Below, one piece after another: positions 3,934 through 55,089 of a stretch of 64,000 nt of DNA. The position numbers were made by a program, and so were the translations under genes. Origin of the DNA: a bacterium (GTDB lineage: Bacteria; Babelota; Babeliae; Babelales; UASB340); contig DAOVPV010000001.1 in NCBI GenBank assembly GCA_030629005.1, forward strand, positions 57,427-121,426. The letters run 5' to 3'. Under the pieces are notes generated by a model. That model was not told the origin of the DNA, searched no databases, and was given only the letters and a program-made list of their open reading frames with translations. Position 1 is the first letter of the stretch. Each line of letters begins with the position of its first letter.

Positions 3934-4010
3934 GCGCCCATAGCTCAATTGGATAGAGTACCAGACTACGAATCTGGCGGTTAGAGGTTCGACTCCTCTT
4001 GGGCGCACCA
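3934..4010 (+). tRNA. tRNA-Arg (anticodon ACG), CCA encoded
   Basis: GCGCCCATAGCTCAATTGGATAGAGTACCAGACTACGAATCTGG..GGTTCGACTCCTCTTGGGCGCACCA; loop CTACGAA. Confidence 0.93.
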
Positions 4011-4174: not shown

Positions 4175-4266
4175 GGAGAGATGGCTGAGTGGTCGAAAGC
4201 GCTTGCCTGCTAAGCAAGTATCTTGGGAAACCGGGATCGAGGGTTCGAATCCCTCTCTCTCCACCA
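4175..4266 (+). tRNA. tRNA-Ser (anticodon GCU), CCA encoded
   Basis: GGAGAGATGGCTGAGTGGTCGAAAGCGCTTGCCTGCTAAGCAAG..long variable arm..GGTTCGAATCCCTCTCTCTCCACCA. Confidence 0.92.
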
Positions 4267-4543: not shown

Positions 4544-4635
4544 GGAGAGGTGGCAGAGTGGTTGAATGCGACGGTCTTGAAAACCGTTATTCCTGGAAAC
4601 AGGAATCGGGGGTTCGAATCCCTCCCTCTCCACCA
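4544..4635 (+). tRNA. tRNA-Ser (anticodon UGA), CCA encoded
   Basis: GGAGAGGTGGCAGAGTGGTTGAATGCGACGGTCTTGAAAACCGT..long variable arm..GGTTCGAATCCCTCCCTCTCCACCA. Confidence 0.92.
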
Positions 4636-17223: not shown

Positions 17224-17297
17224 TGGCTGGGATGAGAGGATTCGAACCTCTGTTGACGGAACCAGAATCCGTAGTCCTGCCACTAGACGACATCCCA
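17224..17297 (-). tRNA. tRNA-Gln (anticodon CUG), CCA encoded
   Basis: reverse complement TGGGATGTCGTCTAGTGGCAGGACTACGGATTCTGGTTCCGT..GAGGTTCGAATCCTCTCATCCCAGCCA. Confidence 0.9.
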
Positions 17298-38807: not shown

Positions 38808-38884
<77 letters not shown>

Positions 38885-38971: not shown

Positions 38972-40319
38972 CTATTTAACAATCTTACCTTCCTTAACAA
39001 GCCTATGAAACTTATTTCCAACAAAAAAAGCAATAACAACCCAAATGCTAACCAAACCTAAAGAAAGAATTGTACCATAATACAATAAAGCGATAGGAGT
39101 TCTCTTTAGAAATTCATTAAAACCGGAACCCATTGCCTTTGCACCCCTTGCACCAAACATATCAATCCAACCCTTAGCCTTAAACTTTGCATCACGACTA
39201 GTTGGAATATACACAACCTCTTTTGCCGGATTATTTAAAGCATAACTTAAACCTTTAGCGATAACTACAACACCAAAAGTAAGCCAAAGCATATTTTGTC
39301 CTGTTAAAAGATCCAATTTTATAAAACCATATAAAACTGAAATCGAAACACCTATAGCAATAGGAAACACTAATAACGAAACCCTTATTCCAAACTTCTT
39401 TATTAAATAACCGGTTCCGAAAAGAGCAATTACAAGTGCCAAAACATTTGTAGCCATCCCAAACATTCCCATAAAGGAAGTTAAACCCTCTCTTGTTGCA
39501 TACTCTGGCAATGCTTGCGCCTGCATCTTCATTTGATAATCAACAATTGTTGTTACTATTTCATAAAACGCTACAAGTAGAAAAACACCAAATAAATATG
39601 GTCTCGTAGTAACCAACTTCAAACCTCTGAAAAAGCCTGTTTTCCTCTCTGAAGGTAAATCTTGTTTTCCACCAATCAACTCATCTTCCGGCATAACCAT
39701 TCTAAAGTGACGAATAACTAACATAACAGCCACAATACATAGTGTTGCAATGGCAAATAACAATGGTAAACCCAATAAATGCGCATTCCAAGACAAAAAT
39801 GGACCGATAATTGCACCTAATTGAGCTCCAGCAATAATTAAAAAATATCCTCTTTTTGCAGATGCAGCATCAGTCGTACTTGCAACAAAGGACCAAAAAA
39901 GAGCAATCATAATGGAACCATAACTCTCAATTAAAACATAGGAAACCCAACCCAAAATTTTAATAAATGAATAATAAGAAGATTCCGGTTCACCAAAGGG
40001 AAAAGATATAAATATTGTAAACAGCGCAAAAAAAGTCGCATAGAAAGTTCAAATAATATAAAAAAGCTGATGTCTATGAAACATATCAACTAATTTACTA
40101 TAAACTAAAACTAAAATAGAAATAACAACCAAAGAGAGCATTTTAGCATAAGGCTGGTTCTGCCCGCCGACAACGTTAAAAAAAAAATCCGTCTTTCAAT
40201 GTTTTTAAAAGCCAGTATCCACCAACCGTAAAGAAAAAAGCTAATGCAAGAAGGCTAAATTTCGCTACCTCTTTATTACTTAAATCCTTACCAAAAAACC
40301 TAAAAAACCGCGTAAACAT
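38972..40319 (-). pseudogene. tlc: ATP/ADP translocase (NTT/Tlc) paralogue disrupted by a frameshift and a nonsense codon
   Basis: colinear with 40466..41815 from ATG 40319; +1 frameshift in a 10-nt A run (plus strand 40178-40187) and in-frame TGA at 40051..40049; only the 327-aa tail (38972..39955) remains an ORF. Confidence 0.8.
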
Positions 40320-40409
40320 AAATCTTACACTTTCTTTTAAAATGGTTACCTTTTTTTATCAAAAGAAAATATAACATATAAAATAAATTTAAAATTTAAA
40401 ATTTAAAAT

Positions 40410-40465: not shown

Positions 40466-41815
40466 TTACTCAACAATTTTACCTTCAGAAGTTAGACGTT
40501 CGAACTTACTACTTACAAAGAATGCAGCGACAATCCAAAAACCAATAAAACCTAAAGATAAAATTGTACCATAAGCTAACAATGCGTGAGGAGAAGCTTT
40601 TAATGAGTCTGTAAACGCAGCACCCAATGCTTTAGAACTTCTGCTGCCAAACATATCTATCCAACCCTTAGACTTAAATTTAACGTCCTTACTTGTTGGA
40701 ATATACATCATTTCTTTTGCAGGATTATTCAAAGCATAACTAAGTCCTTTAGCGATCATCATAACACCAAAGGTTGCCCATAGCATCATCATAGGATTAA
40801 AGTTACCCCATGAGTAAGATGCATACAGTCCGGCTACGGCAGTACCCAAAACTATTGGAAATGTTAATAAACAAAACCTAAGACCAAGTTTTCTCATCAT
40901 GTAACCAGTACCAAGTAAAGCCATAAGGAAAGCTAAAGTGTTTGCAGCCATACCAAATACACCCAAGAAAGCTGTTAAAGATTCTCTAGAAGCATACTGA
41001 GGCAACGCCTGAGCTTGCATTTTCATTTGATAATCAACAATTGTTCCGACTACTTCATAGATTGTAACAACAGCAAAAATTCCTAATAAATATGGCCTTG
41101 TTAATAAAAGCTTTAACCCCTCCATAAAACCAGTTTTCTTAGCAGTAGAAGTTGTTTCTGGTTTGCCTAGTTCTAGTTGTTCTGTAGGTATAACTGCCAT
41201 AAAACGCTTGACAACAAACATCATCATAACAATTCCAAGACTTCCAATAACAAAAAGAGTCCTTAGTCCCAAGACTTCAGCATTTGTTGCCATGAATGGT
41301 CCGAAAATAGCACCAACCTGGGCACCAACAACAACTAAAGAATAACCTTTTTTTGCTGTTTTTGCATCAGAAACACTAGCCGTAAATGACCAAAAAAGAG
41401 CAACAACTATAGAACCAAAACTTTCTATAATAAAGTAAGTTGCCCAACCAAAAAACTTTAAAATTGAGGGATTTAATGCACCAGGTCCAGAAACCGGCAA
41501 ACCTATAACATAGGCAACTATGGCAAATAAAACAGCATATATGGATCCCAAAACATAAAATAGATTGTGCTTTTTAACAATATCTACAAGTTTTGAATAG
41601 ACCATAACCAGCAAACCAACGATAACAACTGATAACATCTTTGCTGTAGGTTGAAACGTTCCGCCAACTGTACTAAAGAAAAAACCATCTTTTAATGGAC
41701 GCAGTAACCAATAAGTCCCGATTATAAAGAAGAAAGTCATAGAAAGTAACCCATACTTCTTTATCTCGTCATTGTTCAAATCTGGCCAAAAAAACTTGAT
41801 TATCCTGGATAACAT
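40466..41815 (-). CDS. tlc: ATP/ADP translocase (nucleotide transporter, NTT/Tlc family)
   Basis: 449 aa, about 12 TM; family-typical segments LRPLKDGFF, IESFGSIVVALFWSF, YALNNPAKEMMYIPTSKDVKFKSKGWIDMFG as I recall them from rickettsial/chlamydial NTTs. Confidence 0.85.
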   Translation of the reverse strand: MLSRIIKFFWPDLNNDEIKKYGLLSMTFFFIIGTYWLLRPLKDGFFFSTVGGTFQPTAKMLSVVIVGLLVMVYSKLVDIVKKHNLFYVLGSIYAVLFAIVAYVIGLPVSGPGALNPSILKFFGWATYFIIESFGSIVVALFWSFTASVSDAKTAKKGYSLVVVGAQVGAIFGPFMATNAEVLGLRTLFVIGSLGIVMMMFVVKRFMAVIPTEQLELGKPETTSTAKKTGFMEGLKLLLTRPYLLGIFAVVTIYEVVGTIVDYQMKMQAQALPQYASRESLTAFLGVFGMAANTLAFLMALLGTGYMMRKLGLRFCLLTFPIVLGTAVAGLYASYSWGNFNPMMMLWATFGVMMIAKGLSYALNNPAKEMMYIPTSKDVKFKSKGWIDMFGSRSSKALGAAFTDSLKASPHALLAYGTILSLGFIGFWIVAAFFVSSKFERLTSEGKIVE

Positions 41816-47969: not shown

Positions 47970-49424
47970 ATGAATGCCATAAAAAACGTAACATTAATCT
48001 TATGCCTATTTTTCTTAGTCGGTTGCCTAAATTACTCCTCCACAAAAAATCTCAAAAAATTAGACGCAAGTACAGTAACATTAAATGATAATACATATCC
48101 TGTTGTTATAATTGGAGGAGGTTTTGCAGGACTTACAGCTGGTCTCTACTTAAGCCAAGCAAATATAAAACACGTTGTAATAGAAGGTCCCGAGCCAGGA
48201 GGCGCAATAACAGCATCTCATTCTGTTTGTAATTGGCCGGGAGAAAAAAACATCACCGGTGTAAATTTAGCAAATAAACTAAAAGATCATGCCGTAAGTA
48301 GCGGCACAAATATTTTAAATACATTTGTCGAATCTGTAGATTTCTCTGTATGGCCATATTTAATAAAAACCAAAAATCAAAATATTAAAGCCTTATCATG
48401 CATAATTACAACGGGCTCAACAGCTAACTTTTTAAACATACCAGGCGAATCTGAATATTTTGGCCGAGGTGTATCCAAATGTGCAACTTGTGATGGTCCT
48501 TTTTATAAAAATAAAACAGTTGCAATTATTGGAGGCGGAAACACAGCGATAACAGATGCCTTATATTTATCTAACATTGCTAAAAAAATATACCTAATCG
48601 TAAGAAGAGGTGTACTACGGGCTTCAGGAAGATCTACTCAAACAGTTAAAAACAAAAAAAACATCGAAATATTATACAATACTAATGTAAAAGAAGTACT
48701 TGGAGATAACAACAAAGTTACAACCCTAAAAATTTTTAATAACAAAAACAACACGATATCAGAACTTCCTGTTGATGGAATGTTCTTAGCCATAGGAGCA
48801 ATCCCAAATACAACTCTTTTTGAAAACAAACTAGAATTAGATAAAAGTGGTCACATAATAACCCAAAAGCACCAAAATACATCCAAGCAAGGTATTCTTA
48901 CAGCTGGAGATGTAAATGAACCAGAGTATAAACAATTAATAATAGCAGCAGGCCAAGGTGCTAAGGCTGCAATGCAGGCTCAAAAGTTTTTAGATAAAAT
49001 AGGCTTTGTCTCTGAAAATTCAAGAGTTCTAAGTGAAAAACAAGAAACAAGTCAAAAAATACAACCTACACTAGAGAAAAAACAAGCTTCAAAAACTTTT
49101 GGCTCTGTTTTAGAAATAACAAGTCCACGACAATTCCAAAAAGAAATATTAGATTATGATGGTAAAGTTGTTGCAGACTTTTATGCCCATTGGTGCTACC
49201 CATGCAAAATGATGCATCCAATAATAGAAAAACTAGCTAAAGATTTAAAATCTATAAAATTTGTTAAAGCTGATATTTCTAATATTGACGCCTTAGGCAA
49301 TGTCTGGGGAATAAGGGGTGTGCCAACATTCATTTTATTTGAAAATGGAAAAGAGGTTCATCGCTTCTCCGGCGGAAGAAACGAAGATGACTTCAGGGCA
49401 ATTATTGAAGAAAAGCTAAAATAA
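47970..49424 (+). CDS. thioredoxin reductase-thioredoxin fusion protein with lipoprotein signal peptide
   Basis: lipobox LVGC (MNAIKNVTLILCLFFLVGC); GGGFAGLTAG FAD motif; CATCDG redox centre; GGGNTAITDA NADPH motif; C-terminal Trx domain with WCYPCK and GVPT. Confidence 0.85.
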   Translation: MNAIKNVTLILCLFFLVGCLNYSSTKNLKKLDASTVTLNDNTYPVVIIGGGFAGLTAGLYLSQANIKHVVIEGPEPGGAITASHSVCNWPGEKNITGVNLANKLKDHAVSSGTNILNTFVESVDFSVWPYLIKTKNQNIKALSCIITTGSTANFLNIPGESEYFGRGVSKCATCDGPFYKNKTVAIIGGGNTAITDALYLSNIAKKIYLIVRRGVLRASGRSTQTVKNKKNIEILYNTNVKEVLGDNNKVTTLKIFNNKNNTISELPVDGMFLAIGAIPNTTLFENKLELDKSGHIITQKHQNTSKQGILTAGDVNEPEYKQLIIAAGQGAKAAMQAQKFLDKIGFVSENSRVLSEKQETSQKIQPTLEKKQASKTFGSVLEITSPRQFQKEILDYDGKVVADFYAHWCYPCKMMHPIIEKLAKDLKSIKFVKADISNIDALGNVWGIRGVPTFILFENGKEVHRFSGGRNEDDFRAIIEEKLK

Positions 49425-49454
49425 CCTACAACATTTATTTCAAATTGTATACTG

Positions 49455-49483
49455 AAAGGCACTAATCTAGGTGCCTTTTTTCT
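49455..49483 (+). terminator. rho-independent terminator
   Basis: AAAGGCAC-TAATCTAG-GTGCCTTTTTTTCTTT. Confidence 0.7.
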
Positions 49484-49543
49484 TTAATATATTTTGTGCT
49501 ATAGTAAATTCTCATTTTTAGGGATAAATCTTAGGGGGATTTT

Positions 49544-51112
49544 ATGCAAAAAAGTTTAAATAAACTTATTAAATTTATATTAATAGTAATAATTCTAAAT
49601 CCAACAAACATATTAATGGCTGCTTTTTGGGGCAGCAACTTCGGGCAGTATACACGATCGCAATCAACAGAATGGACACTAAGAGAATCTGATATTCCAA
49701 CCAATCCAGAACTCATAACAATTAATGGCAAAAATCTAGAAAACATTTTCGATATAACAGAAAGAAACATTCAAGCCCTATATACAAAAATAGATGAATG
49801 GAGGCGTTATATAGCTGGTATCGAAAATAGAATAGTAGAATTAGAAAAAGACAAAAAGAAAAATAATCTACACATTGTTAAATCTAGAATGGAAAACTAC
49901 AGAAAAAAAGTCGAAGCACTAGAACAAGAAATAGTAAACCAACAAGAACTTAGAAAGGCTGCCCTAGCACAAATTACAGATATAAAAGCAACTGAGGCTA
50001 AAACTGAAATTATGGCAGAAGAAAACGACAAAAATAGAGATAATGAAATAAAAAAAGTTCAAGAAGGTATTAAAACATTTATCAATGAAACATTAAAAAA
50101 AGAAAACCTAGAAAAAACCGGAATATTTGCAGCTCTTACAACAGCAGGCATAACAGCAGCATACTATGGCAGCAAACTCGGCTTCAATTTACTGCAAGCA
50201 TATATTAATCAACCAACTCTTATTCGAGAATCAAACAAATTGGGTTTAAAACAAAATTTAAAACAATTTTGGAATCACAAAATATTAAGTAAACCAATTA
50301 TAGAAGCAAAAATAGAAGAAGTGATATTGAGCCCAGATCATAAAACAAGCTTAAGTAATTTTGCATATGATACAAAAAGAACTCATGAAAATCGCTTAAA
50401 CTTTAGAAACGCACTATTTTACGGTGAACCAGGAACAGGTAAAACCATGTTCGCAAAAAGACTCGCTAAATATTGTAACATGGATTATGCGATACTTTCT
50501 GGAGCAGATTTCTCACAATTTAAAGACGGTAAAGATATCGAAGAACTACACAAGTTTTTTGATTGGGCACAACATAGCAAACAAGGTCTTATTGTTTTCA
50601 TAGATGAAGCAGATTCATTTTTAAGAAAAAGAAAAGATTTAACAAACAAAGCAATAAACTTAATAAATGCCTTCCTGTCTCGTACAGGTGAATCTTCTAA
50701 TAAAATCATGTTTATATTTGCAACAAACCACCCGGAAATATTAGATCCTGCAGTTATGAGTAGAATACACAGTAAAATAAACTTTCCAGCACCAGAAACC
50801 AATGAACGAAAACAAATCCTAGATTTATATTTAGAAAAATATATTAAAAATGATACTAAAACAGTAAAAATAAATGGACAAAAAACAACTAGACAAATAT
50901 ATATGCAACCAGAAATAGATTCTAACTTCATAAATCATTTAGCTCAAAAAACAGATGGGTTTTCTGGTAGAGATTTAAGCCAAACCGTTTTAGATATGCA
51001 AATTAGTGCATACAACAGAGGCAATGATGTTCTTACAAAAGAGATGGCAGAACAAGCTATAGATCAAAAAATTAGAGAAGCTAGAGAACTCAAAGATATG
51101 TATGCAAGCTAA
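49544..51112 (+). CDS. ATAD3-like AAA+ ATPase (coiled coil, TM segment, AAA domain)
   Basis: Walker A GEPGTGKT, Walker B IVFIDEAD; long stretches resemble human ATAD3A as I recall it ([11 protein letters not shown] / [18 protein letters not shown] / [18 protein letters not shown] / [40 protein letters not shown] / [29 protein letters not shown]). Confidence 0.7.
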   Translation: [522 protein letters not shown]

Positions 51113-54706: not shown

Positions 54707-55089
54707 TGGTGGAGGCGATGGGAGTCGAACCCATGTCCGCAACGCATTCAATTTCAAGCACTACATGTTTATCTCTCGAATATACTCTTACTTCACCTCA
54801 AGAGCAAAGAAAGAAGTAAAAGCCGGTTTAGTGATTTTCGCTTCATACAAAACCAAAAAATCTATAAAGCGAGTTCTATCTTGTTTAATACGAGCCAGTT
54901 CCACTGATAGACATGCTTCACTGACAAGACCTACTAATAGCTATTATTAGCAGACAGCGGTAGCCCCTGTAGGAATACCGGTATTAACTAAGTTTGCACT
55001 TATTAATTCGTATGATTTTTACAAGCTCCCATACAAAACTCGACATGCTCTCAAAACGTCAAACATCACGTCGAAACCGTGACGCCCCC
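54707..55089 (-). ncRNA. ssrA: tmRNA (SsrA)
   Basis: 5' GGGGGCGTCACGGTTTCGACG..; 3' ..GGGTTCGACTCCCATCGCCTCCACCA; acceptor pairing includes the G3-U wobble; internal tag frame GCA AAC .. TGC followed by TAA TAA TAG. Confidence 0.9.

Follow-up and report, generated by a model that had tools for sequence, protein, structure and literature searches.

ATAD3 is essential in animals and in Plasmodium, is mutated in human mitochondrial disease and is mechanistically unresolved. It has been described in animals, plants and protists and is absent from fungi. Its ATPase lies in the mitochondrial matrix and its stalk passes through the intermembrane space to the outer membrane (PMC13249166). A 2026 paper on ATAD3 calls itself the first study in a unicellular organism and makes no mention of bacteria; the Chromulinavorax genome paper (PMC6561590) makes no mention of ATAD3. 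In the literature searched we found no paper that connects ATAD3 to Dependentiae or to any bacteria, including in a prokaryotic, horizontal gene transfer (HGT) or last eukaryotic common ancestor (LECA) context. Here we analyze an ATAD3-like gene carried by a stretch of 64,000 nucleotides (the window) from a bacterium of the Babelota (assembly GCA_030629005.1, contig DAOVPV010000001.1, positions 57,427 to 121,426). Its product is called the query below. The gene is as follows:

49544..51112, plus strand: coding sequence of a bacterial ATAD3-family AAA+ ATPase, complete, with an ATG start and 522 amino acids (aa) plus stop

A preliminary description of this DNA had presented the gene as a full-length homologue of ATAD3. 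Its coordinates, the length of 522 aa and the order of segments that it gave (hydrophobic N-terminus, helical stalk, Gly/Ala segment, C-terminal AAA) all agree with our analysis. The specific relationship to ATAD3 was likewise borne out, by scores, by profiles, by a clade with full bootstrap support, by a match in the linker and by a shared insertion. Against ATAD3 of animals and plants the query reaches about 205 bits, compared with 52-78 bits against FtsH, p97 and PAN. When 5.8 billion proteins were searched, about 70 proteins of Dependentiae, TM6 or Babeliales came first and the next matches were all true eukaryotic ATAD3 (E ~1e-55, 60-80 % coverage, PF12037 and PF00004). BLASTP alignments with eukaryotic ATAD3 have 29-35 % identity and extend from query residue 92 or 117 to 515 (E 1e-54 to 1e-66). 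For instance the ATAD3 of Diaphorina citri (P0076), which carries TEGLSGREIAK, is 32 % identical over query residues 117-511 (E 8e-66), a match well above chance. The strings that the preliminary description gave for human ATAD3A are found nearly verbatim in such retrieved animal sequences.

Profiles built from 41 bacterial sequences and from 22 eukaryotic ATAD3 sequences were aligned with hhalign, and matched with a probability of 100 % (E 9.6e-96) over query residues 183-522. Residues 186-290 alone, i.e. the membrane segment and the 'PTLIRES' linker, matched ATAD3 residues 244-346 (probability 99.7 %, E 1.2e-25) though they lie outside the P-loop core. Trees were built by neighbor-joining (NJ) with bootstrap, using true FtsH, archaeal Cdc48 (D1 and D2) and PAN-like genes as outgroups. 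Bacterial and eukaryotic ATAD3-like sequences form a single clade with a long stem (bootstrap 200/200 and 100/100). Within the AAA module bacterial and eukaryotic members are 35.6 % identical, and either group is about 25 % identical to the outgroups. Fifteen conserved columns are common to both groups and unlike the outgroups, including FDWA, NAFL·RTG and an SGR[DE] that replaces SGAD. Bacterial and eukaryotic members also have in common an insertion of 1 residue (query residue 344) that occurs in no outgroup. These sequence comparisons identify the query as a specific member of the ATAD3 family, a classical-clade AAA+ ATPase, with homology running from the membrane segment through the linker to the end of the lid.

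The segments of the protein are distributed as follows:

49544..49624, plus strand: putative Sec-type signal peptide or signal anchor, residues 1-27, with a Lys-rich n-region, a hydrophobic core and an LMAA c-region
49625..49726, plus strand: linker of low confidence, probably flexible, residues 28-61 (predicted local distance difference test, pLDDT, <50 for residues 19-43)
49727..50092, plus strand: long charged helical stalk, predicted to be exported, residues 62-183 (AlphaFold2 model, partial heptad periodicity)
50120..50179, plus strand: Gly/Ala/Thr-rich membrane segment, homologue of the ATAD3 transmembrane (TM) segment, residues 193-212
50180..50410, plus strand: ATAD3-specific juxtamembrane linker, residues 213-289, with Q-P-T-L-I-R-E-S-N
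50411..50848, plus strand: AAA alpha/beta core, residues 290-435
50423-50446, plus strand: Walker A, G294-T301, within the AAA core
50498..50530, plus strand: pore-loop-1 region, residues 319-329, of outgroup-type length and with G329 retained
50591-50608, plus strand: Walker B, I350-E355, within the AAA core
50762-50764, plus strand: Arg finger R407, within the AAA core
in the AAA core, plus strand: sensor-1 N395, and the family-specific FDWA with the 1-residue insertion at residue 344
50849..51109, plus strand: beta-hairpin insert and helical lid, residues 436-522, with ATAD3-type GFSGRD (R476) versus GFSGAD in FtsH and Cdc48

The N-terminal hydrophobic segment reaches its top 17-residue Kyte-Doolittle mean (KD17), 2.18, at residues 12-28. 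In the AlphaFold2 model (mean pLDDT 85) long helices occupy residues 62-103 and 106-183; the heptad a/d contrast of the stalk exceeds that of shuffled sequences (z = 3.6), with a peak at residues 60-105. Linker residues P224, L226 and E229 are invariant or nearly so across the bacterial relatives. The only Pfam domain seen on the single query sequence is PF00004 (AAA, residues 291-415, E 3e-26). The catalytic set is complete (Walker A K300, Walker B D354/E355, sensor-1 N395, Arg finger R407) and is invariant in the 41 bacterial relatives. In the pore loop, the canonical aromatic-hydrophobic pair (FV in FtsH, YY/WV in VAT) is replaced by K-D in the query; the pair is K-D/E in bacterial ATAD3-like proteins and G-x in eukaryotic ones.

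The N-terminal half is a different case, and "full-length" was an overstatement: homology to ATAD3 is demonstrable only from about residue 183 on, over the TM segment, the linker, the AAA core and the lid. Stalk residues 30-190 compared with ATAD3 residues 1-236 in hhalign gave a probability of 0.9 % (0.2 % for the reversed control), i.e. no detectable homology. The Pfam family ATAD3_N (PF12037) has no match on the query even at E <= 1; it passes in 9 of the 41 bacterial relatives, and there only by the last 50-120 of its 265 profile positions, which correspond to the TM segment and linker. As far as these comparisons go, the resemblance of the stalk to the ATAD3 coiled coils (CC1/CC2) is analogous, not demonstrably homologous. 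The N-termini of the bacterial family resemble Sec signal peptides, with a Lys/Arg n-region, a hydrophobic core of 12-18 residues and c-regions such as VYA, ANA and AQS; such N-termini are not present in eukaryotic ATAD3. On sequence grounds the query is best filed within the ATAD3 family, in a bacterial branch whose N-terminal half is different and predicted to be exported by Sec.

The preliminary description spoke of "a bacterial copy", which turned out to be one member of a very large and deeply diversified bacterial family. An exhaustive search of 50 %-identity representatives yielded 628 proteins at E <= 1e-30, including a few multi-AAA giants. Filtering left 112 sequences of bacterial type and 38 of eukaryote type, all non-redundant. 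The bacterial-type sequences fall into at least 10 deep subfamilies, almost as distant from one another (mean identity within the bacterial group 38.5 %, within the eukaryotic group 48.7 %) as from the eukaryotes. All bacterial members with a taxon name belong to Dependentiae, TM6 or Babeliales, two more being labelled just 'bacterium'. One assembly (GCA_001468925.1) contains both an orthologue of the query (P0005) and a 588-aa paralogue (P0019). A family-specific scan of metagenomes gave 68 loci: those with a guanine plus cytosine (GC) content of 27-47 % are bacterial-type with signal peptides, and those with >50 % GC are eukaryote-type. No tandem paralogue was found within ±10 kb at these 68 loci. 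None of the viral contigs searched encodes a relative, so a giant-virus route is without support. The automatic KEGG-style annotation of JGI labels several of these bacterial proteins 'ATAD3A/B', so that the similarity is already latent in databases; what is new is that it is recognised and analysed, not that a database picks it up.

Two groups of sequences met in these searches deserve separate mention. P0243, P0245, P0249, P0259, P0263, P0277, P0294 and P0307 are proteins of 1,500-2,100 aa with 4-6 tandem AAA modules and without an ATAD3-like architecture; they score like true family members because the scores of their modules sum. Marine metagenome loci of high GC (>0.55), namely L125:462-2231, L113:3798-8633, L122, L115 and L131, carry eukaryote-type ATAD3, with SGGDV·PLG, an ATAD3_N-type 'DLERAAK' start and no signal peptide, and presumably come from picoeukaryotes. 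The open frame of L113 is 1,612 aa long and may be a fusion or an unspliced gene.

In about half of the other bacterial subfamilies the ATPase gene is accompanied by a partner. Among some 37 bacterial-type loci that extend far enough upstream, about 17 have an open reading frame (ORF) of 400-600 aa ahead of the ATPase gene, in many cases overlapping it by 4 nt (ATGA). Its product combines a signal peptide with a charged, helical body and has one hydrophobic segment close to the C-terminus. These ORFs matched no Pfam family and have no similarity to the N-terminal halves of the ATPases. Examples are:

L087:5727-7004: partner ORF
L156:4602-6011: partner ORF
L157:4481-5950: partner ORF
L159:4679-6001: partner ORF
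L096, L099, L101, L102, L108 and L110: further partner ORFs

A translationally coupled, exported and C-terminally anchored partner fits an envelope complex.

The reading that we consider probable, with reservations, is that of an inner-membrane ATPase whose exported helical stalk acts on the bacterium's own envelope. The protein would be made with a Sec signal peptide, and because of this peptide the first ~165 residues, for the most part one long helix with some coiled-coil character, would be exported to the periplasm. The 120 helical residues of the stalk, if extended, would span about 18 nm. The Gly/Ala-rich segment at residues 193-212 would halt transfer and anchor the protein in the inner membrane with an N-out/C-in topology, and the ATPase would form a ring on the cytoplasmic face. 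Signal-peptide-like N-termini recur throughout the family, the spacing between the central segment and Walker A equals that of the TM segment in ATAD3, and the envelope of Dependentiae consists of two membranes, inner and outer, with material in the periplasm (PMC6561590). We infer an inner-membrane/periplasm topology equivalent to that of ATAD3. Since this is the topology of the mitochondrial protein (ATPase in the matrix, stalk in the intermembrane space), an envelope-spanning role would be expected: the query may be an ATP-driven scaffold or remodeller of the two-membrane envelope, involved in membrane contact or in lipid or protein organisation. A polypeptide-threading unfoldase would not be expected, and a scaffold or remodeller is favoured, because the canonical aromatic pore loop is missing.

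Several points weigh against this reading. The Gly/Ala-rich core of the query (residues 193-209) is only weakly hydrophobic, its KD17 of 1.10 being more than 1 standard deviation (SD) under the mean of the bacterial family (1.55 ± 0.35; eukaryotic mean 1.78). A stop of transfer is therefore not assured for the query, and complete export, hence an effector or periplasmic role, is possible. Signal-peptide and topology calls were made by eye and with simple scales. No partner ORF was found at the query locus or in its orthogroup, unlike in about half of the other subfamilies. The PDB copy searched holds no solved ATAD3 structure to anchor the mechanism, and the function of eukaryotic ATAD3 is itself unsettled (PMC13249166).

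The gene was then placed in its genomic context, for which the following features were considered:

49454..49479, plus strand: terminator-like hairpin and T-run downstream of the TrxR-Trx gene (10-bp stem with 4 GC pairs, T-rich tail)
49497-49505, plus strand: extended -10-like motif TGcTATAGT, read by eye; the scan made no call there
49533..49539, plus strand: Shine-Dalgarno-like AGGGGGA, 4 nt ahead of the ATG, read from the sequence
54707-55089, minus strand: full-length transfer-messenger RNA (tmRNA; 163 bits)
2154-2237, strand not given: tRNA gene
3934-4007, strand not given: tRNA gene
4175-4263, strand not given: tRNA gene
4544-4632, strand not given: tRNA gene
17227-17297, strand not given: tRNA gene
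38811-38884, strand not given: tRNA gene

The tmRNA and the six tRNA genes confirm an ordinary bacterial chromosome segment. The terminator-like hairpin at 49454-49479 parts the ATAD3-like gene from the upstream gene, which suggests a transcription unit of its own; as the downstream gene is convergent, the ATAD3-like gene is probably monocistronic. Codon usage was compared, as the preliminary description had proposed, and the gene is native in composition: its GC (0.306), its GC at third codon positions (GC3, 0.199) and its codon usage are all within 1 SD of the genes of the window, whose GC is about 31 %. Neighbours in the window include two TLC ATP/ADP translocases, adenylate kinase, PBP2, DsbD, a TrxR-Trx fusion, TrxB, RarA and the tmRNA, i.e. 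the housekeeping set of an energy parasite. The order PBP2-DsbD-TrxR/Trx-[gene]-TrxB-RarA is kept at orthologous loci of other assemblies (52-62 % identity). We conclude that the ATAD3-like gene is native to a bacterium of the Dependentiae (TM6, 'Candidatus Babelota') and stable in its chromosome.

Some of these neighbours have features of their own. The TrxR-Trx fusion gene directly upstream (47970-49424, plus strand; Pyr_redox_2 and Thioredoxin domains) adjoins DsbD and is kept at the orthologous loci L085 and L157. The N-terminus of its product, MNAIKNVTLILCLFFLVGC, has the look of a lipoprotein signal, with LVGC as lipobox; export would be unusual for a flavoprotein of the NAD(P)H type. 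The TLC-type translocase genes, a pair regarded as a hallmark of energy parasites, are in tandem (38975-40320 and 40466-41815, both minus strand) and 56 % identical to each other. The first copy is seemingly frameshifted near residue ~45 in the window (two frames in tblastn); in the matching ENA scaffold (L083) the gene is intact and encodes 448 aa, and the frameshift may be an assembly or sequencing difference.

What else could the protein be? If it were a generic bacterial AAA protein (FtsH-, Cdc48-, CbbX- or IetA-like), its likeness to ATAD3 would reflect the shared AAA fold only. Sequence searches of the PDB and Foldseek do return generic AAA proteins (p97/VAT, FtsH, PAN), because no ATAD3 structure is deposited, and there are matches to FtsH in NCBIfam (78 bits) and to IetA in PADLOC (80 bits, on the AAA module only). 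Overall the NCBIfam models for FtsH, PAN, Cdc48, IetA and CbbX give 19-78 bits. These matches are confined to the AAA module and the NCBIfam scores are far under the family cut-offs (FtsH TIGR01241 78/600, CbbX 19/459, Cdc48/p97/VAT TIGR01243 63/803, IetA NF042959 66/510), whereas the match to ATAD3 extends beyond the AAA core. No M41 protease domain or HExxH was found in the query, which has no peptidase Pfam match and ends at the lid (residue 522); there is no second AAA domain of the Cdc48/p97/VAT type, only one Walker A being present, and no IetS-type protease gene is found beside the query gene, flanked by TrxR-Trx and TrxB. Anti-phage defence (Iet) was also considered as a function and rejected, the IetA match being AAA-only and below cut-off, with no IetS neighbour. 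The likeness to ATAD3 clearly reaches beyond the Walker motifs into the linker, and the protein belongs to a separate clade and not with FtsH-, CbbX- or p97-like proteins. At the level of sequence, the profile match, the tree clade, the linker match and the shared insertion already refute the generic assignment, to which we give practically no credence. A secreted effector was also considered; eukaryote-like proteins of intracellular bacteria are often effectors. The query would then be exported by Sec, leave the cell, insert in host mitochondrial membranes by way of its ATAD3-like segment and mimic or perturb host ATAD3, remodelling mitochondria around the parasite. One Dependentiae parasite does become wrapped by the mitochondrion of its host, and signal sequences are present on 44 % of the parasite's proteins (PMC6561590); signal peptides are present in the family, and the weak central segment of the query might not stop transfer. 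Many family members, however, have a strongly hydrophobic central segment and should stay in the inner membrane, the translationally coupled partners bear C-terminal anchors, and the ATAD3 region mediating contacts with the outer membrane and the endoplasmic reticulum has no counterpart. Moreover the orthogroup is stable and keeps its place among housekeeping genes of envelope and redox functions, and catalytic residues are invariant over at least 10 old subfamilies, unlike in fast-evolving effectors. The preliminary description had left the choice between host mitochondria and the bacterium's own envelope; synteny, invariant catalysis and anchors lend better support to the own envelope, and we regard an effector as improbable.

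The origin of the gene is a distinct question. All eukaryote-type sequences form one clade (bootstrap 82-98) without any bacterial sequence; the sampling covers animals, plants, a choanoflagellate, Cryptosporidium, Cystoisospora, Marteilia, oomycetes, Rhizaria and MMETSP protists, and is without Amoebozoa, Discoba and Metamonada. In 99 % of bacterial members pore loop 1 has the length seen in the outgroups and retains its glycine (G329), which is deleted in 172 of 172 eukaryote-type sequences. Two rare changes, the insertion at 344 and the loss of the glycine, thus polarise the family in the alignments: the bacterial form is less derived, since it retains G329 and the loop length as in outgroups, and by these characters no crown eukaryote among the groups sampled can be the source of the bacterial proteins. 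In our reading, which the data show in part, the bacterial/eukaryotic split predates the divergence of animals, plants and SAR (stramenopiles, alveolates, rhizarians). A recent transfer of ATAD3 from a protist host, the query being an isolated xenologue, had been suggested in the preliminary description, and the parasite does live within eukaryotes. It is contradicted by native codon usage, conserved synteny among orthologues, the size and depth of the bacterial family, the eukaryotic clade and the eukaryote-specific glycine deletion; the gene is not a recent import, and we judge this origin very improbable. An ancient transfer is possible in either direction. From eukaryote to bacterium, it would have been followed by a radiation into many fast-evolving paralogues and by a gain of Sec signals. 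This origin is compatible with the envelope mechanism. It agrees with the reliance of all known Dependentiae on eukaryotic hosts (PMC6561590), with the restriction of named bacterial members to that phylum and with the monophyly of the eukaryotes. Both outgroup rooting and outgroup-free minimal ancestor deviation (MAD) rooting (60/60 resamplings) place the eukaryotic clade inside the bacterial radiation, never the reverse. The nesting is nevertheless weak, as the backbone among bacterial subfamilies has NJ bootstrap <30 and the MAD ambiguity index is 0.999, too little against a sister relationship, and faster evolution in the parasites could alone draw both roots into the bacterial radiation. 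The pore-loop states and a bacterial diversity exceeding the eukaryotic one also speak against a eukaryotic source, which we consider possible while leaning away from it. For the direction, the sequence data lean modestly to a bacterial-type ancestor. In its full form this would mean that eukaryotic ATAD3, which is essential for the organisation of the mitochondrial inner membrane, is neither a eukaryotic invention nor an alphaproteobacterial inheritance, but came by pre-LECA HGT into a stem eukaryote from an older bacterial family now found in Dependentiae-like intracellular parasites; we put this forward tentatively, as a rather unlikely scenario. If true, the bacterial proteins would be living representatives of the ancestor, in which Sec exports the stalk, the glycine of the pore loop is still in place and a partner is often present as a subunit of its own.

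A lineage named 'X3' was observed in the same trees. It consists of P0085 (L081:8001-9320), P0097, P0098, P0123, P0124 and P0125, is small and bacterial with a GC of about 38 %, and tends to branch beside the eukaryotic clade, without support. The genes around P0085 are bacterial and include T2SS-F, Fic, NUDIX and spermidine synthase; protein identities with Dependentiae loci are only 30-45 %, and a search with the neighbouring spermidine synthase gave no close named match.

The field treats ATAD3 as eukaryote-only, and a large bacterial sister or parent family with ancestral states makes its origin testable. The bacterial proteins are intron-free and shorter, and structural and biochemical work on them may be easier. 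To what is known of Dependentiae, parasites living pressed against host mitochondria, the family would add a machine spanning the envelope that had escaped notice or, with lower probability, an effector aimed at mitochondria.

Compared with known systems, the query shares with IetA a single AAA module and generic scores of 66-80 bits; that match is AAA-only, 66 bits versus a cut-off of 510, and no IetS-like protease is adjacent. FtsH is its best structural match and shares the classical-clade AAA module, the SG[SA]DF motif, the pore-loop length and the succession of N-terminal hydrophobic segment, periplasmic region, second membrane segment and cytoplasmic ATPase. The query differs from FtsH by the lack of the M41 protease with its HExxH, by an AAA-module identity of about 25 %, by its separate clade with 100 % bootstrap and by a pore loop in which the aromatic MFVG is replaced by FKDG. 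Unlike ATAD3, the bacterial protein begins with a Sec-type signal peptide, lacks the ATAD3_N coiled-coil homology, the proline-rich motif and the proposed outer-membrane TM1, and measures ~500-520 aa versus 580-650 aa in eukaryotes. It keeps the pore-loop glycine and SGADF where eukaryotes have TGGDVAPLG with one residue deleted, and it exists in multiple paralogues per genome, many subfamilies being coupled to a separate exported partner gene. With ATAD3 it shares the order of parts, in which a helical stalk is followed by a membrane segment rich in Gly/Ala, some 100 residues ahead of Walker A, and then by linker, AAA core and lid; the GKPSLVRE(S/T)SR-type linker; FDWA, NAFL·RTG, GFSGR[DE] and the single Arg finger; the 1-residue insertion after FDWA-x; the absence of a canonical aromatic pore loop; and, as predicted, an ATPase on the matrix or cytoplasm side with a stalk between two membranes.

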